Assembly (NCBI RefSeq): GCF_018977255.1
Contig: NW_024704742.1
Span: 58,220,001-58,284,000, forward strand
Length of the DNA: 64,000 nt
Source: Callorhinchus milii
Taxonomy: Eukaryota
Reading direction: 5' to 3'
Below, in pieces: positions 2,529 through 24,789 of this stretch. The first letter of the stretch is position 1; each line of letters starts with the position of its first letter. The position numbers and the translations under genes were made by a program. The notes beneath the pieces were generated by a model. That model was not told the origin of the DNA. It was given only the letters and a program-made list of their open reading frames with translations, and did no database searches.

Positions 2529-3184
2529 TCATCTTGATCTTCTATCCTTTTTGGATTTTTCTAGGCATTTGTCCATGGTCTTTTCATTATCACCTCTACA
2601 CTTTGGACAATACCAGTTTCCTTTTGGTTTATATGTTAGTCCAACACAAGAAAAATGATACCATTCAATCGGACACTCTTCATTGTCGCAGCCAATCATT
2701 TCACCATAAGACACTTGGTTACAGAGGCAGTAAGTGGGTTCATCGGGATCTATCAGAAAGTCAACAGGGGAGATTTCTCTCTCTTGTCTACCTTTGGAAC
2801 GTTTCTTCTTTTTGGCAGATTTGGATTTCTTCTCTTTTGGTTGGTCCTCTCCCTCTTCAGTATCATTATTGATTTGGCACATGTCACGGTTATCTCCATT
2901 TCTCAGTCTACGTGACCGCTTGGAAGACCTTTCTGATTGGGGCAGCTCTGCTTTGAGCTTCTCTGGTTCAAGTAGGTCCTCAAAATATTCAGAATGACTT
3001 TCCATCTGCTTCGCACGATTTTCCACCTGATCCATCATTTGTGTAACTATCTGAATTTTCTCATCGCCTAGCTCTTGGTTATTGATCAATGCGCGTTGTA
3101 GATTATTCAACAATTGTTTTCTTTGACTTGTATCTGTTTCCTTCTTATATTTTTCATAAGCATTATCAACCTCTTTCATGATTT
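2529..3184 (-). CDS. ING2: Inhibitor of growth protein 2, exon 2 (NLS, PHD finger, polybasic tail)
   Basis: Acceptor TTTCAG ending at 3185. Reads [16 protein letters not shown]...[48 protein letters not shown]...KKDRRSR*, matching the ING2 PHD finger and C-terminus. Confidence 0.97.
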
Positions 3185-4372
3185 CTGAAACAGAGAGAAA
3201 GACAAGATATATTAACATACAATGGACACAGCAAGAATTATACTGAATGTTCAATATTCTAGTCTTTAAAATTAAATTATCCTGCATCTATAAAAAAATA
3301 AAAAATTCTATCTGTCAAGCTCTTAAAAAGTAACTACAGACTTATAAAATAAGCTTCCAACCACGTCCTAAATAAATAATTTAATAGGTTTTGAAATCAA
3401 CTTCAGCATTTTCATCCATAGCAAAATATTAAACAGGGAGTTGCAAATAAAATGTAAAATTACCAGAGAGGATTCAAGGATATATTACACATTAGTCCTG
3501 GCTAACCAACTAATGAGGGTGGGGGGGGAAGAATTTGATCGGTATTGCAATTTTTGGCACTGTTTTAATGTGCGAATAAACTATCTTCTGCTCACATAGT
3601 CACTCACCAAAGCAGGTTTACACATGGCTACCGTGAAGGCCGGCAACGACAGTGAGGTGGGGAACAAACATCACGTGAGTTGCTCAGCATAGCTTTGGCG
3701 CACACCAGGACAGTTGGGGGTCGGGGTCGGGGTCTACCCGCAGGCCCGTGGAAATTTGGGCCTCCAGAAATATTTTTAATCTTTTGGTTTCCAGTCTGGC
3801 GAGGTTCGAATTCAGGATACCCATCATCGTGCTTAAAGAGTATCCAAACCAAACTGAGAAGTCCATGCATCCCACCTGCACATGGAGATCCCAGAGATAG
3901 TTTGCTGGAGGGAAGCATCCGGCTGCTTACCCAAGTCCAGGAAGTATTAAGCTCAGGTCGGTTGCCAAGAGCCCAGGCTTGGGGACCCCAGTGTGTGTGT
4001 TGGGGTAACTGCTGGGGTCTAACCAGCTAAAACCATATAGATTTCCATTGATACTGCTGTCCGGCAAGCTCTCCCGCGGCTTGTCCAGCAAGGACCACTC
4101 TCACGGCTTGGGCTTTGGCCGGCGGGAGGACTCCCTGCCCCCGGCGACCGGTCTGCCTTTGGGGTCCCGCCAACGAGGCAGCAGCGCCCCGGAAAACTGC
4201 GGACCCCACTGGCTCAGCACATGGACTGGAGACCACCACAGAGGGTCGGCTCCGTTCCCACATTCCGCTGCCAATCCCAATCCCAATCCCAGTCCCAACT
4301 CCAGGACAACAACAACAAATTACATTTGTACAGCACCTGCTTACCCAGAGTCTCCCAGCCCAACCCCTCCCC

Positions 4373-12486: not shown

Positions 12487-13913
12487 TTACCTTGCACAGG
12501 ACTCTAAGGGATTTATTAATGCAGGAGCAAGATTTAGCCGATGCAAGTCTTCACATAAAAGTACTAAGTCTTCAATTTCATTTCCTTTAAATCTTCTTTT
12601 ACATATCTTTACTGTAACTTTGTGTTTCAAGAACAATTTAATAGCTTCCTTAGCAGCCATTTCTGTGGCGCTCACTTTGCATTTTCCGTAGCCTGTAGCC
12701 AAATAAACAGATTTACATCTTAGTTCGCAAACAATTCCTTCACGGGCAGAGCTTTGTGGCAGGTGCAGTTCAGATATGTCTTTCAAAGGAACGTACACAG
12801 AATCCAAGGTACTCTTCGCCGCCTCAATGCAGTTGTTCAACATCTCAAAGTGTTTAATGTCATTACTGAAACCACCAGCTGAGACAAGTTTCCACGCTAT
12901 AGCCTTGTAGAGTTTATTGTAGAATGTTTGTTTTTCTTTCATAACTTCAGGAGTTAGATTAACAGTTGTTAAGGAAGTCTTGCAGCTTTGTGAGGTGGGA
13001 GTCTGGACAGCTCTCTGTGGGATAGAAGCCTGAGCAGATCTTTGTGGGATTAAAGCCTGAAGATCTCTTAGCGGGACGGAGGCCTGAACAGCTTTTTTGG
13101 GGATGGAAGTCTGAACTAGTTTTTGCAAGAGAGGAGTCTGAACAGGTTTTTGTGGAATAGTGGGAACAGATTTTTGTGGGATAATAGTGGGAACAGGTTT
13201 TTGTGGGATAATAATGGGAACAGGTTTTTGTGGGATAATAGTGGGAACAGGTTTTTGTGGGATAACAATGGGAACAGGTTTTTGTGAGATAGGAGTCTGT
13301 ACAGATTTTTGTGGAATGGAAGTCAGAACAGGTTTTTGTGGGGCAGGAGTCTGAACAGGTTTTTGTGGGGCAGGAATCTGAACAGGTTTTTGCGAGATAA
13401 TAGTGGGAACCATTTTTTGTGAGATAGGAAGAGTCTGTACAGATTTTTGTGGGATGGAAATCGGAACAAGTTTTTGTGGGGCAGGAGTCAGAACAGCTTT
13501 CTGGGAACTCTCCACAGATCTGCTGCCATTTTGAATATTTGGTTGAACTTTGGACTTGACTTCTCCAGATGGACCAGGCATGGTCTGTGCTGAAGCCCCA
13601 GGCTGACTTGGCACTGCCTGCTGATGACAGACGGGATCTGACTCTTGAGTGACAATTAGTTTTCCTTCACTTTCTCTTGAGGCATCTGTTTGGTTTGAGT
13701 TGTTAGTTGGTGCTGAAGCGATCTGGTCATCCTCTTGGGGCTTTGACAAAGCTTCTGATGATCCACTAGGGGAAAAACCATCCAGACCTGGGATTCTGTT
13801 CAGACAAACATCATGGTCACTATTTCCGGCGCCTTCAGAGGTCAAAGCAAATCCTCCAGGTGCATCTTCTTTGACTAGTTGTTTCTTTGGGCAAGGTTGT
13901 TCTCCTATTCCTT
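12487..13913 (-). CDS. CDKN2AIP: CDKN2A-interacting protein (CARF), last exon: low-complexity region and C-terminal dsRBD-like domain
   Basis: Acceptor CAG ending at 13914. Reads EGIGEQPCPKK...KQTFYNKLYKAIAWKLVSAGGFS...CELRCKSVYLATGYGK...EIEDLVLL...LAPAL, typical of the CARF C-terminus. Stop TAA at 12489-12487. Confidence 0.93.
13000..13505 (-). repeat. Coding 27-bp (9-aa) tandem repeat, ~19 copies, consensus ~PQKPVPTII/PQKPVQTPA
   Basis: Repeated ggaacaggtttttgtgggataatagtg units, in frame within the CDKN2AIP last exon. Confidence 0.9.
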
Positions 13914-13975
13914 CTGTTGAAATAAACAATCATGTATGGAATCTACATTATAGAATACATTTCAGTTTGAAGCTA

Positions 13976-15158: not shown

Positions 15159-15347
15159 CTGTAACAAATATTTAGAAACTATAACAACAAGAAATCAATT
15201 ATAACTGTCAGAATTCAACCACAAAAATAGTTAGCAACTATATATTTGATAGATGCTGTTCTACCACAAGTGAATAAAATGTAATTAATAATCTGAAATA
15301 GCTAAGAAAGATTGGAATAACCTTTAAAGTATAGTTAATCTGCTAAC

Positions 15348-15481
15348 CTTTGCTGGTTGAAACCTCTGTTTTCTTCACTTTATTGCCAACCAATTCACTT
15401 CTCAATGTGTGGCTAGGAGCATCTTTAATTTTTATGTCCTCTCCCATTTCCAGCACTTTATCCATCACCTCCTTTGTGTAC
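15348..15481 (-). CDS. CDKN2AIP: CDKN2AIP exon 2 (XTBD C-terminal part)
   Basis: TAG acceptor, YTKEVMDKVLEMGEDIKIKDAPSHTLRSELVGNKVKKTEVSTSK, G|GTTAG donor. Continues the XRN2-binding domain. Confidence 0.93.
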
Positions 15482-16295
15482 CTAAGTTACAAACAACAAA
15501 CAGTGTCAACTGGTTATCGGGTATACAACAAACTCTACAGTGTAGACTGTAACAAGTAGCTGATTGAATCAGGCTGGAATAAAAAGATATAGCCATTGTA
15601 AATCATCTGATTCAGTTCTACACATTCTTGACCCCTCTTCTTTGAAAAGTACATCTGGTTACAGCCTGATTCAATTGGTGGCATTCTCACTTATGAGCTG
15701 GGCCAATAAACCCTAAGATATTTTTAAAATCTTGATGATGACACTGCCAACTAGATAGAGTTTAGAATTGTGATCTATTGTTTATTGTATAGTTTTGTAT
15801 ACTTCCACTGTGTATATTAGATTTCTGAATAAGTAAATGGGTTTCAGTAAAGTTCACGACTCTACATCTGGATGTAAAAGATGCAAGTATCATTTTTTTT
15901 GCAATCTTGGAAAAAGGTTATGTCCTTGCACATTTGTGTTGAATTCACCTGTAACTATTGCACTGTTTAAAATGCTAAAATTACGTTGATACTCTACATG
16001 AAAGGTGATTTACAAGTGGAAGTTGTTGTTACATGGACTTGTCAAAAGTAAGATTACAGCCATCTTTGGTGAAATCAGGATTCCACATCCTGCAAATCAG
16101 TGTTATGAAGACTCCCTGGTCAATCATGAGCCATGGTAATAAAATAATCGTGCGCCCGTTTTGGTGGAATCAATTGGTTTTCGCCGCCAGAACAGCTTAG
16201 AACCTTCAGCAACTAATTCTTCCCTTTACTCCAATTTAGCAGCCCGTCCTGCCCGCAGCTGTGTCACCGTTTCAGTTAGTACAGGGCCATTAGTA

Positions 16296-16536
16296 TAATA
16301 ATAATAATCCTTGCATTTGATATAGCGCTTTTCACGTCTTCTTGACGTCCCAAAGCGCTTCGCGGAATATACTGTAAAGTGAATTGACTGTATATTTGTG
16401 GGCGAACGCGGCAGCCAATTGCGCACAGCAATGTCCCACAAACAGTCGTGGATTGAAAATGACCAATTTATTATTGTTTTGTTTTTTTGGAGGGATTATT
16501 ATTAGGCGTGTGGAGTAAAGAAACTTGCCCAAGGTT
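16296..16536 (-). mobile_element. tRNA-Deu SINE, 5'-truncated, inserted in the ERV between RNase H and the integrase start
   Basis: Matches the 3' ~240 bp of the young SINE family. Confidence 0.85.
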
Positions 16537-17109
16537 TTGTACTACAGTTAATAGTTCCTGTAACTAACACCTTTGTTACTGGCATCTGTTCATTTCAAAA
16601 ACAAGCCGAGCGTGCCAGCATATCTGCCAGCTCGTTGCCATTTGTATGTAACCCATATTTATGATGCTCTGAAGTGTGCCAAATGTGCATCACAGGTGTT
16701 TCCATTTTTTCGCCCCAAATATCTTTGTATTCTAAGGGTTTTCCCTTATGGTTTGTCCAATTTTCAGTAGCTCAATTAACCAGGTCATCTAAATATGCTT
16801 TGCAAACAAAACAGAGTCGGAAAAATAATCACTGCTTTTGTACCCAATGGGAGAAGCTTTAAAGCCTCCAGCAGGGAAATGGCTTCAGCTACATGTGCCA
16901 ACAAACTTCTGCATGGAATCGCATATTTTCCCAATTCTTCCCACCCGCTGCAGTCCACTTACCCATGGCATTGCCTATCCCTGCCTGTCTCTTTTGGTCT
17001 ATTTCTTGGGCAGACCCGTCATAGTAAATAAGTCAATCCCTCAACCAGTTCCCAATGCTCAATCTCCACTGGGGGTTTAATCTCCGGTAACAAACACTCC
17101 AGTTTAATG

Positions 17110-17560
17110 GAGAGTTTGCCACTTTTAACTCTTCCTCCTACTCGCACTCTGACCTCTCCATCCATGGTCTCCTACGCTGTTCTGATGAGCCACAGGACAA
17201 GCTCAAGGAACAGTACCTCATCTATCTGCTGGGGACCTTACAGTCCTCTGGCTTCAATATTGATTTCAACAATTTCAGACCGTAACAGCTCACCTTCCCC
17301 CTCCCCCTCTTCTGTGACCATTACCACATCATCTGGGTCCCAGACACACCTTTTCTCTCTCCTATTTTGTTGCAATTTTCTCCCCCTTTGTTTTGCATTA
17401 ACAACACCTCTTTTCCCCTGTTTTATTGCATTCCTTCCTTTGTTTTGCATCATTACCATCTTTGTAACCCATCATCCCCTGTCCTCTAGCCCATTTTCCA
17501 ACTTTATTTTCACCATAGATGCTGCCTACCTGCTGAGTGATCTGAGTGACTTCTGTTTTT
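17110..17560 (+). mobile_element. Penelope-like element 3' fragment (GIY-YIG C-terminus and tail)
   Basis: Frame FNSSSYSHSDLSIHGLLRCSDEPQDKLKEQYLIYLLGTLQSSGFNIDFNNFRP*. Tail agatgctgcctacctgctgagt. Flanked by the 14-bp direct repeat ACTCCAGTTTAATG (17096-17109, 17561-17574). Confidence 0.8.
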
Positions 17561-18038
17561 ACTCCAGTTTAATGTCAGGTTCCTCTTTAGTTTTAAATTC
17601 CACTGTGGGTTCTTGCAAGAGACTCTCCCACAGTGCCTACCGCTGTTTCAGTGCTTTTTTTGTCTTACTCTTATACGAGCTGTAGAACGAATCCCCACAC
17701 ATCGAGTAAAAATAATAGTTTTCTCGCAAGGCTGTGCTGGGTTTCTGACTTTAGCTACACGGTAGTAGACGCTGCTAATGTTCTTCCAGGTCAAATGTTT
17801 TCGCTGCTTAGGAGAACTCGAATAGTTTTTTTTATCCTGTCCGATTTTTCCAATGGCGTTTTTTTCCCCATTTGAAAAATTTCTATCAAATCCGTACCTC
17901 TTACTCTAACGGCTAAAGGGCACCCTTGCAAAACTGCCTTTTGCAATTCCCCAATTTCCACGGGAAACTGGGCAGAAATTTTTACACTCTCAACACCTCA
18001 CAATTATGTTAGCCTCTGGTAAAGAGGTCACACCATGA

Positions 18039-18365
18039 TAATAATAATAATAATAATCCTTGCATTTGATATAGCGTTTTTCACGTCGGGAGGACGTCCC
18101 AAAGCGCTTCACAGAACACACTGTAAAGTGAATTGACTGTATATTTGTGGGCGAACGCGGCAGCCAATTGCGCACAGCAATGTCCCACAAACAGTCGTAG
18201 ATTGAAAATGACCAATTTATTATTGTTTTTGGTTTTGGAGGGATTATTATTAGGCTCTGTGTGGAGTAAGGAAACTTGCCCAAGGTTTCGCCCTCTGCCT
18301 GGAATTGAACTCAGGTCTTTCACTTGCAAAGCGAGTGCTCGAACCACTGAGCTACAGGACTCCAC
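18039..18365 (-). mobile_element. tRNA-Deu SINE, full length, inserted in ERV RT/thumb region
   Basis: Complete head, core and tail. Near-identical to the other young copies. Confidence 0.9.
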
Positions 18366-18642
18366 AATGATGGTGTAATTAAGAACATAGTCGTCACGAG
18401 TTTAATTGCACAATCCTTAAATCCCTTGGAGTTGGCTCCGATTTTTGAGTGTTTTTAATTTTCTAATTTTCTCCAGATATCCCTCGAAGAGTCCCACTCT
18501 GTCATCTGACACAATATGCCCCAGGAATTCTACTTAGAATCTTCCTTTTTGGCTTTTACGTAAATTTATTTTAAAGCCTGCAGTGGTCAGCGGCTGCAGC
18601 ACTTGTTTTAATTTGTCCATATGCGCGATAGGGTCGTCATCT

Positions 18643-21600
18643 TTTAAAAAAAACTTAACATTTTTTTTAAAAAATCCCTAAAATCCAGAATGAGAGAGAG
18701 AGGAGGATGGCATGGCAGGTGATGTGCGAGGACTGCGGTATGTGGGAGCTGATGGAGGGCAGCCTGAGCCCGGGCGACTTCATCTACAGCAAGTGTCTGC
18801 AACTGAGGAAGCTCCGCTGAGCAGAGTAGCTGAGCTGGAATCTGAGGTGCAGACATTGCGCAGTATTAGGGAAAGGGGGAGCTTCCTCGACAGTTTCATC
18901 CTGGAGCCAGTCACTCCCCTGAGGCTCAGGGAACGTATAGATTACGTTACTAGTCAGGGACAGGACAGAGTAACTGATAATCAGGCAGGTAAGGGGACCC
19001 CAGAGAGAGTAGCGGGGAAGCCCCAAATAGAAACAAACGGGTATGATCTAGTACCCATTACTGAGACGTGGTTACAGGGAGATCAAGGGTGGGAGCTAAA
19101 TATTCCGGAGTATTCGGCATATACGAAAGATAGGCAATGTGTAAAACGAGGTGGGGGGGGGGGGGGGGGGTAGCCCCGCTAATAAAGGATGGGATAAAAA
19201 CGGTAGAGAGGAAGGATTTTAAATCAGAAAATCAGGATGTGTATGACTACATACACGTATGGAATTACGAAATATCAAGGGGTAGAAATAACAAGGGAGT
19301 AGTTTATAAACCCCCGAACAACAGTCACAGTATTGCGCAGAGTATTAACTAGGAAATTATTGGAGCATGTAGAAAAGGAAATACACTAATAGTGGGTGAT
19401 TTTAATCTTCATATAGATTGGGAAAACCAAATTGGCAAACGTTACAGGAGGAGCTTATAGAATGCATTAGAGATAGTTTTCTCTATCAATATGATGAGGA
19501 ACCAACCAGGGAACAGGCGATCCTAGATCTTGTTTTGTGTAATGAAATAGGGCTAATGAGCAATCTGGAAGTCAAGGCTCCTCTGGGGCAGAGTGACCAT
19601 AACATGATGGAATTTAACATTAAGTTAGAGAGTGATGTAGTTAAGTCTGAAGCAAAGGTCTTAAATTTAAATAGAGTCAACTTTGCAGGTATGAGAGAAG
19701 ATTTAGCTAAAATACACTGGGGAATTAGATTAAAGGATATGACAGTAGACCAGTAATGGCAAACCTTTAGAGATATAGTACATAATTCCCAGTGATCACA
19801 TATTCCCTTGTGGAATAAAAATATCACGGGAAAAATGGTTCAACCATGGCTAACTAGAGCAGTTAGGGAAGGTATAAAATTAAAAGAGACCTTTAGTACT
19901 GCGAAAAATAGCAGTAAACCCGAGGATTGGGAGGGCTTCAGAGACCAACAAAGAAAAACTAAGAAAATGATTAGGAGGGAGAAAATGGATTATGAGGGCA
20001 AACTAGCGAGGAACATAAAGACAGACTGCAAGAATTTTTACAAATACATAAAGAGGAAGAGACTAGCAAAAGTGAATGTGAGTCCATTACAGGCAGAGAC
20101 AGGAGGAATTATAATGGGGGACAAAGATATGGCATTAAACAAATACTTTGCTTCTGTCTTCACATTAGAAGACACGGAAAACTTACCAAAAATAGAGAGA
20201 AACCAAGAAGCTAATGTTAGTGAGCAACTTCGGGAAATTAACATCAGTAAAGAATTAGTACGAGGGAAACTGTTGGGATTGAAAAATGACAAATCCCCTG
20301 GACCTGATGGCCTACATCATAGGGTTTTAAATGGCTGCTGAGATAGTGGATACCTCATTTTTGATCTTCCAAAATTCTCTGGATTCTGGAACGGTTCCCA
20401 TTGAGTGGAAGATCGCAAACATAACACCACTATTTAAGAAGGGTGGGAGAGAGAAGATGGGGAACTGTAGACCAGTCAGTCTGACATCGGTGGTAGGGAA
20501 AATTCTATAATAATAATCCTTGCATTTGATAAGCACTTTTCACGTTGGGAGGACGTCCCAAAGCGCTTCACAGAACACACTGTAAAGTGAATTGACTGTA
20601 TATTTGTGGGCGAACGCGGCAGCCAATTGCGCACAGCAATGTCCCACAAACAGTCGTAGATTCAAAATGACCAATTTATTATTGGTTTTGGAGGGATTAT
20701 TATTAGGCTCTGTGTGGAGTAAGGAAACTTGCCCAAGGTTTCGCCCTCTGCCTGGAATTGAACTCAGGTCTCTCACTTGCAAAGCGAGTGCTCTAACCAC
20801 TGAGCTACAGGTCTCCACAAAGGATCCTTAATTAGGGACGTTGTGGGGTACTTAGAGGACCATAACACGATTAAGCAGAGCCAACATGGCTTTACAAAAG
20901 GGAAGTCATGCTTAACAAATCTTTCAGAGTTTTTTTGAGGATGTAACTAATAGGTTAGATTGGGGGGAACCAGTAGATGTAGTATATTAAGATTTTCAGA
21001 AGGCGTTAGACAAGGTGCCACATATAAGGTGCTATACAAGATTAGGGCCCATGGAATTAAAGGCAATATATTAGCATGGATCGAAGAGTGGCTAACGGGA
21101 AGAAAACAGAGAGTAGGGATAAACGGGTCCTCAGATTGGCGGGATGTGACTAGTGGAGTGCCACAAGGATCAGTGCTTGGGCCTCAACTATTCACAATCT
21201 ATATCAATGATCTGGACGAGGACATAGAACTTAAAATATCTAAATTCACGGATGATACTAAGCTAGGTGGGAGAGTAAGCTCTGAGGATGACACAAAAAG
21301 ATTGCAAAGAGATATAGATAGGCTAGGTGAGTAGACAGGAAGGTGGCAGATGGAATATAATGTGGGGAATTGTGAAGTTATTCACCTAGGTAGTAAAAGC
21401 AGAAAAGCAGATTATTTTCTAGAAGGGGAAAGACTAGTTAGTGTTAGTGTTCAGAGGGATTTGGGTGTCCTTGTACACCAGTCACAAAAAGTTAATATGC
21501 AGGTACAGCAAGCAACTAGGAAGGCTAATGGCATGTTGGCGTTTATTGCAAAAGGGTTAGAATACAAGAGCTGGGAATTCTTGCTGCGACTGTATAGGGC

Positions 21601-22154
21601 CTTGGTGAGACCGGGCCTAGAATATTGTGTGCAGTTTTGGTCTCCTTATTTAAGAACATACTCGCCTTAGAGGGGGTGCAGTGTAGATTCACTAGATTAG
21701 TTCCTGGGATGAGGGGGTTGACCTATGAGGATAGGTTGAGTAAACTGGCCTATATTCTCTAGAATATAGAAGAATTAGGGTTGATCTTATAGTAACATAT
21801 AAGATTCTTATGGGGCTTGACAGAGTAGACAATGTGAGACTGTTTCCCTGGTAGGAGAATCTAGAACTAGGGGTCACAGTCTTAAGATTAAGGGACAGCC
21901 CTTTCCAAGAGTTGAGGAAACACTTCTTCACTCAGAGGGTAGTGAATTTATGGAATTCTCTACCCCAGAAGGCTGTAGATGCTCAGTTCTTGAATATATT
22001 CAAGACTGAGATTGATAGGTTTCTAAAGGATAGAGGGATTAAGGGATATGGGGATAAGGCGGCAGATGGAGTTAGGTTAGAAGATCAGCCATGATCTTAT
22101 TGAATGGCGGGGCAGGCTCGAGGGTCCGAATCGCCTCCTAATTCCTCTGTTCCT
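18643..22154 (+). mobile_element. CR1 LINE, internally deleted and frameshifted (ORF1 zinc-finger remnant, APE endonuclease, RT, 3' UTR)
   Basis: ORF1 CEDCGMWE...SKC and RVAELESE. Endonuclease [54 protein letters not shown]1 tail gatcagccatgatcttattgaatggcgg. ATCT duplicated at 18639-18642 and 22155-22158. Confidence 0.93.
20508..20818 (-). mobile_element. tRNA-Deu SINE inserted into CR1 ORF2
   Basis: Full SINE interrupting the CR1 RT frame after VVGKIL. Confidence 0.9.
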
Positions 22155-22519
22155 ATCTGCCAAGAATATATCCCCAACGTAACAATTTATCCCTGGTATC
22201 CCTATTACCGTTTACAAAACAGAAAATAGGTGTGACCGAACACCCGACATCTGGACTTTCACTCGCTCTGCTTTCCCTCACCTCAGAAACAGTGCCCACC
22301 TTTACCACTACTTTTCTCTTGTGATGCTTAGCTGAGATGATGAATTGCTCATCGCCTCAGTATTTGATTACTCCAAACCCTTGCTTACCAACCTCCCCCG
22401 CTGCAGACCATCCAGAACACTGCAGCCTCTGTCTCAGACCAGTTTCTGAATGCGCTTGGCTCCACTGGCTCTCCATCTCCCAACAGACCAAATGAAACAT
22501 CCAAGAACAAATTATTCAA

Positions 22520-23190
22520 CCCTCCAACTGGTGGAACCATCGCTCAATGGAGGATGTGTCCGAGCTGTGGACAAGAATACGGTAGCAATGCTCTCATGCC
22601 TTTCATGTTGAGATGTGTTGCCCACCGGGAAGGTTGCAGGGAGTTCCTTGGGGTGGGGAGAGGTAAGCGCTGTCTCCTTGGAGGTGAAGTGGCTCCAAGG
22701 TGACTTGCCTGGCAACGGAGTGTCAGAATTGAGCCAACTCTCTGTAGTCCAGTTCCTGAGCCAGGCAGGTCCACTGTATTCCAGGGCATTACTGATGACA
22801 GCACAACCAGTCTGGCTCATTGGTAGGACCTGGAAGGGCAGACCAGTCACTGGGGGCAGTCATCCCATTCAGCTCTGTTAACTCTACAAGCCAAGGCCCT
22901 AATGGGTAGAGTGGTCATAGCTGCACAAGCAGTGGCGAGGTACGTGGTTTTAGCTACTCAGAACTCAGCAGTACCCCAACACACACACTGGCGGCCCCAA
23001 GTCTTGGCTCTTGCCAACCTGCGGAAAATAATTTCCAGAATTAGGTAAGCGGGATGTGTTCCAACAATGTATCTCTGGGATTGTAGATTCCGTGTGTAGA
23101 TGGGATGCGTGGAAATCTCGGCTGGGTTTGGATACTCTTAAGCACGGTGATGGGTTTCTGCGCGTGGCAGACACGCGGCCGACGACAACA
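22520..23190 (-). repeat. Unclassified old interspersed repeat, longest copy
   Basis: Reverse-complement similarity to 3500-4035, and similarity to fragments at ~6900-7060, 24620-25160, 44590-45330 and 47060-47190/49210-49380. Confidence 0.6.
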
Positions 23191-23459
23191 ACAACAACAA
23201 AATTGCAGACCATCACAATCTGTTACTCCGGGCGACCGTGTTACAAGGAGCTTTGGTGTAGTGCGGTTCCGCTTATGACGTGGGTGGGATCGTGGTGGTC
23301 CCAATCCCGGCTCCAACCGGTCCCGCTCTGTGTGTTGGGTGCACGGGTGGGATTCACCACCGTCACCGCGCAAGTGACATCTGCAGCGGTTATCCATCCT
23401 CACTCCCTCTCCACCCTCACCGCTAATCTCCTCTCTGCACACTGACTTACTCGCTCTCC

Positions 23460-23970
23460 CGACCCTCCCTCTTGTCACCCCGCCCCCCCGCCCCCCTCCC
23501 CGCCCCCCTCCCCCCCCCTCCCCCCCGCCCACCCGCCCACCCTCCCCCCCCGCCCTCCCACCCTCCCCCCCGCCCTCCCCCCCACCCTCCCCGCCCACCC
23601 TCCCTCCCTCCCTCCCCCCCCCCCCTCCCCCCCCCTCTCTCTCCCCCCCCCTCTCCCCTCCCCCCCTCCCCTCTCTCCCCCCCCTCCCCCCCCTCCCCTC
23701 TCTCCCCCCCCCTCTCCCTCCCCCCCCTCTCCCCTCCCCCCCTCCCCCCTCTCTCCCCCTCCCCCCCCTCCCTCCCCCCCCCCCTCCCCCCCCCTCTCCC
23801 CCCACCCCTCCCCCCCACCCCTCCCCCCACCCCTCCCCCCCCTCTCCCCCCACCCCTCCCCCCCCTCTCTCCCCCCACCCCTACCCCCCCCCTCCCCCCC
23901 CTCTCCCCCCCACCCCTCCCCCCCCCTCTCTCCCCCCCCTCCCCTCCCCCCCCCCCTCCCCCCCCTCTCT
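23460..23970. repeat. C-rich (sense-strand G-rich) low-complexity tract at the start of CDKN2AIP intron 1
   Basis: About 500 bp of C-runs separated by single T/A/G. Confidence 0.9.
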
Positions 23971-23973
23971 TAC

Positions 23974-24236
23974 CGGCAGCCCATGAAGACATGGTTGACC
24001 CACACCATGGAGAGTGACAGGAGACGGTCCAGGCCTGTGCTGGCGGCCGCCGGGCCTGGTTGGCTTCTGCTGATGTTAAAGTCCTCCATGTTGCGGAGGA
24101 TGAACTGCCGCCGCAGCCTCCACTGCTTCTCGGTCTCGTGGTGGCTCCTCAGCCCCTCGGCCCAGGCCGCCAGGCCCTGGTTCTGCTGCAGGAACTCGCA
24201 CACCGTCTCGTCGTCCTCCTCCACAGGCGCCGCCAT
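23974..24236 (-). CDS. CDKN2AIP: CDKN2AIP exon 1 (XRN2-binding domain, XTBD)
   Basis: ATG at 24236, MAAPVEEDDETVCEFLQQNQGLAAWAEGLRSHHETEKQWRLRRQFILRN...LLSLSMVWVNHVFMGC, CG|GTAAG donor. The four-exon join gives 632 aa. Confidence 0.94.
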
Positions 24237-24251
24237 GATCCGCTCCCACCC

Positions 24252-24481
24252 CACACAGCGCCCCCCTCCCGCGGCCCAGTCAGGTACTGCACACAGCGCC
24301 CCCCGCGGCCCAGTCAGGTACTGCACACAGCGCCCCCCGCGGCCCAGTCAGGTACTGCACACAGCGCCCCCCCCCCCGCGGCCCAGTCAGGTACTGCACA
24401 CAGCGCCCCCCCGCGGTCCTTTCAGGTACTGCACACAGCGCCCCCCGCGGCCCATTCAGGTACTGCACACAGCGCCGCCCC
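24252..24481. repeat. 34-bp VNTR (GCGGCCCAGTCAGGTACTGCACACAGCGCCCCCC) x ~6.5 immediately upstream of the CDKN2AIP ATG
   Basis: Direct tandem copies visible. Confidence 0.92.
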
Positions 24482-24789
24482 ACGGACCAATTCGGGACAA
24501 CAACAACAAATGCCACTGGTGTGAGGGGCGGGGCCGGCAGTGTCCCTGCTCCGAGCCCCCGCACATTCCTGGCCGCTCCGCGTTGCCCCGGAGACCACAA
24601 AACCAGACCATGTCTAACCGGTCCCTTCAGATAACTGGTCACTGAGCCCTTCTCCCTCCGAATCCAGGGCACTGCTGGTGACAGCGCCAGTCCGGCTCAC
24701 CGGCAGCACCTGGAGGAGCAGACCAGTCACCGGGGGCAGGAAGTCATCCCACGCAGCTCCTGTTGACCCTGCAAGCCCAAGCTCTAAGG

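Follow-up and report, generated by a model that had tools for sequence, protein, structure and literature searches.

A probable foamy-like endogenous retroviral pol relic, split by later insertions, in an intron of a CDKN2AIP-like gene of Callorhinchus milii

The 64,000-nucleotide stretch of Callorhinchus milii DNA analysed here (contig NW_024704742.1, positions 58,220,001 to 58,284,000; hereafter the window) carries, on the minus strand between positions 16105 and 22240, five segments summing to 1587 bases that resemble the retroviral pol gene. In our reading this relic is a molecular fossil, now dead, in which about 1.6 kb of the central part of pol survive from an ancient foamy-like endogenous retrovirus (ERV); we put the probability of this reading at roughly 0.88. 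The relic is an ordinary member of a published ERV group, to which it adds one more decayed copy and no new gene. Foamy-like ERVs (FLERVs) of C. milii, known from pol only, were already published in 2017 by Aiewsakun and Katzourakis (PMC5512871), and spuma-like ERVs of other cartilaginous and jawless fishes by Song et al. in 2023 (PMC10699275), so the novelty implied by an earlier note on this DNA, made from the sequence alone, does not hold.

The five pol segments and their relatives

The relic is made up of the following segments, listed in coding order with the evidence that identifies each of them (L, P and C numbers are our handles for genomic loci, proteins and contigs).

22155..22240, minus strand: segment 1, end of the reverse transcriptase (RT) palm with the YXDD box (here YVGD); translation, profile and 80% DNA identity to L023 7514-7464
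18366..18638, minus strand: segment 2, RT thumb with three in-frame stops; PDB, tblastn and profile
17575..18038, minus strand: segment 3, connection (tether) domain, heavily frameshifted; profile match at its end and paralog DNA matches
16537..17109, minus strand: segment 4, RNase H in at least two frames; profile, PDB 2lsn, Pfam RNase_H and paralog DNA
16105..16295, minus strand: segment 5, linker and start of the integrase N-terminal domain, ending near 16101-16105; paralog DNA and a weak profile match

All ten motifs by which the earlier note had recognised the element were found on the minus strand, each inside the segment to which it had been assigned. Three reading frames are required to translate them and stops have to be read through, the thumb segment (18366-18638) alone containing 3 stops in 91 codons. 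The relic has no coding capacity, and no sign of function was seen. In the alignment the catalytic box is YVGD, a decayed form, in the window copy, and YVDD, as in the foamy rows, is retained in the sister copies L023 and L058; since YVDD also occurs in some class I rows, the box does not discriminate foamy from class I sequences.

When the thumb segment was compared with the PDB, the top five of the 14 matches listed were foamy protease-RT structures, aligned over residues 317-402 (7kse and 7ksf at E 7e-11; 7o0h, 7o0g and 7o24 at about 6e-7), the entry named "Pr125Pol" being that of marmoset simian foamy virus. The next match was an RT of murine leukaemia virus (MLV) type at E 0.56. For the RNase H piece, the best of six PDB matches was the foamy RNase H chain 2lsn (E 0.046).

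The segment translations were then compared, in a search of 15 sequences, with a Pol profile of 12 sequences (seven foamy, four teleost and the foamy-like P0232). Segment 1 matched foamy Pol amino acids (aa) 299-320 (E 0.011), segment 2 aa 317-408 (E 1.8e-26), the end of segment 3 aa 540-566 (E 0.01), segment 4 both aa 595-617 (weakly, E 1.3) and aa 672-749 (E 1.2e-8), and segment 5 aa 796-814 (weakly, E 0.73). These six matches are collinear over foamy Pol aa 299-814, and the three matches that were out of order occurred at E 0.7-3 only. The order of RT, connection, RNase H and integrase N-terminus read from the motifs is therefore upheld, being collinear in the profile and also in the paralogs. 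Segment 3 matches the DNA of L023, L024 and L016 in collinear order, and its equivalent in L024 aligns to foamy Pol aa 432-686 at E 2e-12. Segment 5 matches the DNA of L008, L010, L017, L021, L023 and L025, with the matching stretch of L008 falling within a foamy integrase alignment of aa 749-1006.

Five foamy virus genomes were retrieved from IMG/VR by a short motif pattern, with Pol 95% identical to the Human spumaretrovirus Pol P0217. In tblastn searches of the window with these five Pols, aa 316-420 matched at E 8e-14 to 4e-11 and aa 689-755 at E 0.01-0.09. Nine of the ten foamy motifs that were checked lie in P0217 at matching positions, including aa 597 and the four positions (aa 312, 543, 691 and 798) at which the foamy strings cited in the earlier note were found. 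The tenth motif, given as HTEGNALADKLA, was missing from P0217 and was found in the PDB chain 2lsn. The PDB ranks, the tblastn searches and the RT trees described below thus all agree with the foamy likeness that had been claimed.

In an exhaustive HMMER search with the thumb piece over 1.84 billion representative proteins, 210 proteins matched at E <=0.001. The thumb piece scored E 3e-13 in this library, which, like its PDB and profile scores, is well beyond chance, and ten of the matches were looked up. Five of these ten, which include the best ones, are teleost proteins (Scortum, Larimichthys, Amphiprion and Xyrichtys) with 41-48% identity, and the C. milii RefSeq protein P0006 is also among the best matches. 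The remaining four are of other kinds: three resemble Gypsy proteins and come from a charophyte alga, an arachnid and a protist, and one is an unnamed record. A profile of the teleost group found 74 proteins, nearly all from teleosts, one of which (P0188) has a match to Pfam Spuma_A9PTase. This match together with overlapping host names, a comparison of names rather than of accessions, suggests that the teleost group corresponds to the published teleost FLERVs. A word-indexed search of longer proteins with the thumb piece gave 96 candidates and none that scored, and a scan of viral contigs with the teleost/C. milii profile gave 79 pattern matches and none that was confirmed.

Three further proteins from these libraries are recorded here as side observations. 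In P0233 (Scyliorhinus torazame, 891 aa) the RT region shows 33% identity to foamy Pol; the protein is annotated as a fusion with a PR/SET-type protein and sits on a long branch within the starred (well-supported) clade of mammalian foamy viruses. P0232, a foamy-like Pol of 980 aa and sister to the teleost group, is filed under a bacterial metagenome-assembled genome of Vagococcus fluvialis, into which host DNA was probably misbinned. P0231, a Pol of 1156 aa from a public run, is 60% identical to simian foamy Pol and falls inside the foamy clade.

Later insertions, truncated ends and sister copies

The five segments are separated by two tRNA-derived short interspersed elements (SINEs), a long interspersed element (LINE) with a third SINE inside it, and one abundant repeat:

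18639..22154, plus strand: LINE with RT and endonuclease-type open reading frames (ORFs), between the YXDD region and the thumb; ORFs and junctions
20507-20818, minus strand: third SINE copy, nested in the LINE; blastn, and Rfam tRNA-like head at 20748-20810
18039..18365, minus strand: full-length tRNA-derived SINE; unit with 21 blastn matches in the window, and Rfam tRNA match at 18295-18357 (31.5 bits)
17110..17574, strand not assigned: abundant interspersed repeat; 14-bp target-site duplication at 17561-17574 and 17096-17109
16296..16536, minus strand: 5'-truncated SINE; blastn match 16295-16537, 92.7% identical to the SINE at 18039-18365

That these four are later insertions, as had been proposed, is confirmed by paralogs that bridge all of the insertion sites without them. 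L023 (contig C4) has no LINE and only 16 nt between segments 1 and 2, and 8 bases between segments 4 and 5. L024 continues from segment 3 into segment 4 without the repeat of 17110-17574, and L021 continues from segment 4 into segment 5, the SINE at 16296-16536 being absent from both L023 and L021. Since these older, insertion-free sister copies join the segments directly, the five segments go back to a single ancestral sequence, whose order and strand they have kept. A genome search with the repeat of 17110-17574 gave 2258 candidates at first look; 40 of these were scored and were 80-87% identical to it.

A second copy of the LINE was seen 135 kb away, where L027 4714-5181 (C1:58102714-58103181) is 97-98% identical to window positions 18528-18997. 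This copy carries 111 bases of the ERV thumb (window 18528-18638) at its 5' end, and the homology stops at a short duplicated motif. From its sequence it looks like a 5' transduction from the LINE of the relic or a local duplication.

Both ends of the relic are cut. Homology to the sister copies begins near 22213, which moves the upper limit of the claimed span inward from 22240, and extends to near 16101-16105, in agreement with its lower limit. When the RT-start and integrase DNA of the sister copies was compared with the 64-kb window, nothing was found beyond SINEs and the known end near 16101. Between 12000 and 27000, a scan for repeats yielded no pair of long terminal repeats (LTRs), the only long direct repeats there being SINEs and tandem arrays. 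Since homology stops at both ends and no LTR pair is present, the window copy is an internal pol fragment, and with no LTRs left it is impossible to date it by them. Nor do distances between copies give a safe age, as the copies may go back to viruses that had diverged beforehand. No gag, env, protease, accessory gene or LTR was found in the window copy or in the sister loci examined, and no splice signals of a separate Pol mRNA survive; the lack of LTR, gag and env had been noticed before and is confirmed by the repeat scan and by tblastn with foamy gag and env.

The genome was searched for fuller copies, as the earlier note had recommended, and the family was traced through at least 15 related remnants that jointly span foamy Pol aa 156-1130 in order, from RT to the C-terminal part of integrase. 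Besides the window copy, the RNase H piece matches 14 places in the genome at 65-79% DNA identity, and the thumb piece five. L024 provides a 255-residue stretch from connection to RNase H, and L023 aligns with simian foamy Pol at 36.7% identity across 229 residues (E 3e-37). L058 (C2:75237580-75238161) is 42.6% identical to foamy RT over 188 stop-free residues, compared with 27% to class I RT. No long pol frame was found in 11 ten-kb stretches around family matches. Elsewhere in this otherwise ruined family, open frames of 494 aa (C5:60470821-60472035, probably P0006) and 415 aa (around C2:75237580-75238161, L058) were observed, and one of these two long-frame members is annotated in RefSeq as a gene product.

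Phylogenetic placement

RT trees were built from residues equal to foamy Pol aa 150-425 using IQ-TREE with LG+C20, and support is given as ultrafast bootstrap / SH-like approximate likelihood ratio test (SH-aLRT). Trees of RT and RNase H with spumaviruses, fish foamy-like ERVs, lokiretroviruses, epsilonretroviruses and Gypsy had been suggested as a check, and those of RT place the family with the foamy viruses and the teleost group. The fragment and about six sister copies group in a starred clade (100/99, 99/98 and 100/99 in the trees of 45, 51 and 46 rows, respectively), and the clade of family, teleost group and foamy viruses is found at 83/90, 86/93 and 100/97. The class I label in these trees comes from one test, in which the best PDB match of P0236 was an MLV-type RT (E 1e-126) as against 1e-54 for foamy RT. 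P0160 and P0012, which matched in split pieces, were not used.

In the 45-row tree, P0006 joined the sister copies at 96/87, the class I-like rows were set apart at 100/99 and the Gypsy side at 100/99, with one extra row (RNH_P0242) among the Gypsy rows. For the 51-row tree, ten class I virus genomes from IMG/VR were added and the Gypsy rows P0019, P0204 and P0244 as well as RNH_P0242 were dropped as long or stray, giving class I (16 rows) at 100/99 and Gypsy (12 rows) at 100/100. For the 46-row tree, six more loci of the genome were added and 11 redundant rows were dropped (four Gypsy, three class I, two teleost and two foamy); L058 grouped with the sister copies, four loci (L045, L047, L050 and L053) fell into the class I clade at 100/99, and P0006 stood apart from the group of L023, L058 and the window copy. 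Class I (6 to 17 rows) formed its own starred clade, and Gypsy (8 to 15 rows) lay beyond a starred branch, in all three trees. The RNase H tree comprised 37 rows after three rows of fewer than 55 residues had been dropped. In it the fragment joins eight sister copies at 100/99, and a further split, also 100/99, puts them together with the foamy and teleost rows and away from 15 class I rows.

The trees also bear on pol lineages of other kinds. A fragment of a Ty3/Gypsy (Metaviridae) LTR retrotransposon would account for the Gypsy-type polyproteins (charophyte alga, arachnid and protist) among the lower-ranked thumb matches; however, a starred branch (100/99 or 100/100) separates Gypsy from the family in all three RT trees, two of which have a clean Gypsy clade. 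A layout of thumb, connection and RNase H is retroviral, and in Gypsy the RNase H follows directly after the RT, with no connection domain. In the relic, about 170 connection codons lie between the thumb and an RNase H of retroviral or cellular type, and the earlier argument for a retroviral rather than a Gypsy architecture is sustained by this and by the separation of Gypsy in the trees. We consider a Gypsy origin to be extremely improbable, and membership of the family in Gypsy was ruled out by the RT trees. Neither a placement within Gypsy or another non-spuma clade of the trees nor segments out of line with one another, the two outcomes named beforehand as contrary to a foamy-like pol, was seen in the RT trees, the Pol profile or the paralogs.

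Much the same can be said of the gamma/epsilon-like or snakehead-retrovirus-like lineages I-III of C. milii ERVs (CmiERVs). These lineages are abundant in the genome, where a search with class I Pol found 51 matches, among them many whose reading frames stay open over long stretches. Yet four such loci (L045, L047, L050 and L053) fall with class I at 100/99 and away from the family, the thumb scores E 0.56 against MLV-type RT and 7e-11 against foamy RT, and the RNase H tree parts the family from the 15 class I rows at 100/99. There is thus hardly any likelihood that the relic derives from such a lineage; barring serious faults in the alignments, class I membership of the family was ruled out by the thumb PDB scores, the RT tree and the RNase H tree.

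Several points weigh against the foamy-like reading and deserve to be set out together. The fragment fills only 37-38% of the kept columns of the RT trees, and the clade of foamy viruses, teleost group and family is unstarred in two of the three (83/90 and 86/93). The three groups within this clade (family, teleosts and foamy viruses) branch in a three-way fork without a resolved order. The RT trees were made without labelled class II, class III (ERV-L), lokiretrovirus or snakehead-retrovirus-like sequences. Since the RNase H tree is two-sided, it supports "not class I" and not "foamy". The connection, the N-terminal part of RNase H and the integrase piece are weak when taken alone (E 0.01, 1.3 and 0.73) and rest on order and paralogs. 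Pfam searches with ten translations gave only two matches, RVT_1 (E 0.08) and RNase_H (E 7.9e-4), both under the curated cut-offs, and the best RNase H open frame of the family (L019, 170 aa) matched no Pfam family at E 0.01. In L023, L024 and L010, the copies that keep the RT start, there was no profile match to the A9 protease before foamy Pol aa 156, an absence that decay may explain; in the window copy this region is missing altogether. Finally, when 17 family loci and the window were searched by tblastn with partial gag and env from three foamy viruses, the matches stayed at chance level (E 0.15-0.73).

The missing class III, lokiretrovirus and snakehead-retrovirus-like rows, the three-way fork and the failure to find a foamy gag, env or protease would also suit an alternative in which the relic is retroviral and not strictly foamy-like, being of class III (ERV-L-like) or another deep lineage that groups with foamy viruses for want of its true relatives in the tree. 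However, the best of 1.84 billion proteins were teleost foamy-like proteins and P0006 and not members of other retroviral groups, and L057, which represents another ERV lineage of the same genome, remained outside the clade at 99/94. Furthermore, the published tree rooted with class III retroviruses keeps the C. milii sequences inside the clade of foamy viruses and FLERVs (PMC5512871). We therefore regard this alternative as improbable.

The foamy-like reading implies a sequence of events of the following kind. A retrovirus of the foamy/FLERV clade would have integrated in the germ line, and it or its descendants would have left at least 15 related pol remnants in the genome. The window copy would have landed in, or have been carried along with, the first intron of the CDKN2AIP-like gene in the orientation of that gene. 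Later, all sequence before the YXDD box and all that followed the integrase start would have been lost from it, stops and frameshifts would have accumulated, and two SINEs, a LINE and one more repeat would then have broken it up.

Two other groups of ERVs were observed in the course of this work. Many class I pol genes (L045-L056; for example C2:91879238-91882360 and C5:58222858-58225470) have stop-free frames of up to 1442 aa, and these probably include the published CmiERV lineages. The lineage of L057 (C466:3380-4230) is found at C466:2366-4360, C548:27109-29103, C771:20059-22053, C909:12596-14590 and C1182:13974-15959, is young-looking with stop-free frames of 746 to 2200 aa, and shows an identity of 32-33% to aa 102-747 of foamy Pol and of 30-31% to class I Pol. 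The RT of L057 forms a branch outside both the class I and the foamy-like clades (99/94), and the lineage may be the published snakehead-retrovirus-like one or something else.

Host gene and known lineages

The whole relic lies in a single intron of the gene in which it sits, and in the orientation of that gene:

15482..23973, minus strand: host intron holding the whole relic; spliced contigs
23974-24245, minus strand: first XTBD-coding exon (part seen); Pfam XTBD and contigs
15348-15481, minus strand: next exon; Pfam XTBD and contigs

The two halves of the XTBD domain fall on either side of the intron, with Pfam positions 2-49 (E 4e-18) within 23973-24347 and positions 49-80 (E 9e-5) within 15346-15486. 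Two contigs of public runs from one study (X5 record 1 and X7 record 16) join 23974 to 15481 and carry the exon 15348-15481, which sets the intron at 15482-23973. An ORF of 480 aa in the last exon lies at 12487-13929 on the minus strand, and the adjoining gene has an ORF with ING and PHD domains at 2529-3287. The location in intron 1 of CDKN2AIP that had been given for the relic fits the XTBD halves in two exons, the spliced contigs and the adjacent ING-type gene. The gene is presumably CDKN2AIP, a name that we take from the human synteny of ING2 with CDKN2AIP and from the domain content.

The sense orientation in a first intron would favour a take-over of the relic by the host as an exon, promoter or regulatory element of the CDKN2AIP-like gene, and low-depth unspliced contigs do cover parts of it, from runs that also hold spliced transcripts. 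Four public runs guessed to be RNA were examined, two of which hold the spliced host transcript. Among the joints listed for the contigs of these four runs there was no splice into the relic; both spliced contigs skip the entire intron, and the joints listed inside the intron all involve SINE copies. The relic is, moreover, full of stops and young repeats. The contigs over it may be what is expected of intron RNA or stray DNA, and a take-over by the host appears very improbable. The public runs that hold the RNase H stretch bear one species label throughout, and none of them is labelled as RNA; they were found with a word index that detects near-identical DNA only, so the single label has no bearing on orthologues.

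Two kinds of tandem array were seen in the host gene. A 27-base repeat at 12972-13503 in the large last exon translates into a repeated proline- and glutamine-rich peptide, and G+C-rich arrays of 8-13-base and 34-base units lie at 23373-23931 and 24231-24515, in the intron beside the first exon and upstream of the coding part of that exon.

The wider meaning of the relic is modest. Foamy-like relics in cartilaginous fishes support an age of the lineage equal to that of the jawed vertebrates, a point already made in 2017 with C. milii sequences (PMC5512871). The locus is a clean case of a nested-insertion fossil missed by ORF-based annotation. Lying between conserved host exons, it might also help with dating, given access to the corresponding intron in other chimaeras.

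Of the known systems, the published C. milii FLERVs (CmiFLERVs) are the closest in host. They are reported as five RT stretches (XM_007890932.1:329-958 and, on four AAVX02 contigs, AAVX02007855.1:35070-35699, AAVX02008076.1:17550-18104, AAVX02021479.1:4831-5271 and AAVX02030290.1:18590-19123), with no gene other than pol, and are placed basal to the tetrapod foamy viruses in possibly two clades of a tree rooted with class III retroviruses; gag and env of fish FLERVs are described as too diverged for alignment with the mammalian ones (PMC5512871). Like the family described here, they are several old fragmentary copies of pol only, basal to mammalian foamy viruses and possibly of two sub-lineages (PMC5512871). 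They differ in being RT stretches, whereas the window locus is without most of RT (PMC5512871). An RT probe would therefore hardly pick the window locus. The sub-family of the window copy is likely to be the same as that of the published CmiFLERVs, and the accession numbering suggests that XM_007890932.1 encodes P0006. It is rather unlikely, in our opinion, that the sub-family (the window copy, L023, L024, L015, L016, L010 and L058) is instead a chondrichthyan foamy-like lineage apart from the five published RT stretches, in which case its two long frames might reflect activity until late or the co-option of a foamy-like RT by the host.

Other comparisons are with more distant elements. The relic shares with the mammalian foamy viruses (7KSE, 7O0G, 2LSN and P0217) the order and spacing of domains from the YXDD box to the integrase N-terminus and the positions of motifs, but it is endogenous and decayed and lies outside the starred mammalian foamy clade. 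The teleost foamy-like Pols (Larimichthys P0003, Poecilia P0157, Zoarces P0156 and Scortum P0002) group with the family and the foamy viruses, but they form a separate starred clade of their own, and many of them have long open frames of RT, RNase H and integrase. Three other ERV lineages of C. milii, younger and snakehead-retrovirus-like or epsilon-like, were described by Han in 2015 (PMC4422223). These class I CmiERVs resemble the relic in being endogenous retroviral pol in the same genome, and differ from it in belonging to another starred clade, in being younger and in keeping open frames of up to 1442 aa.

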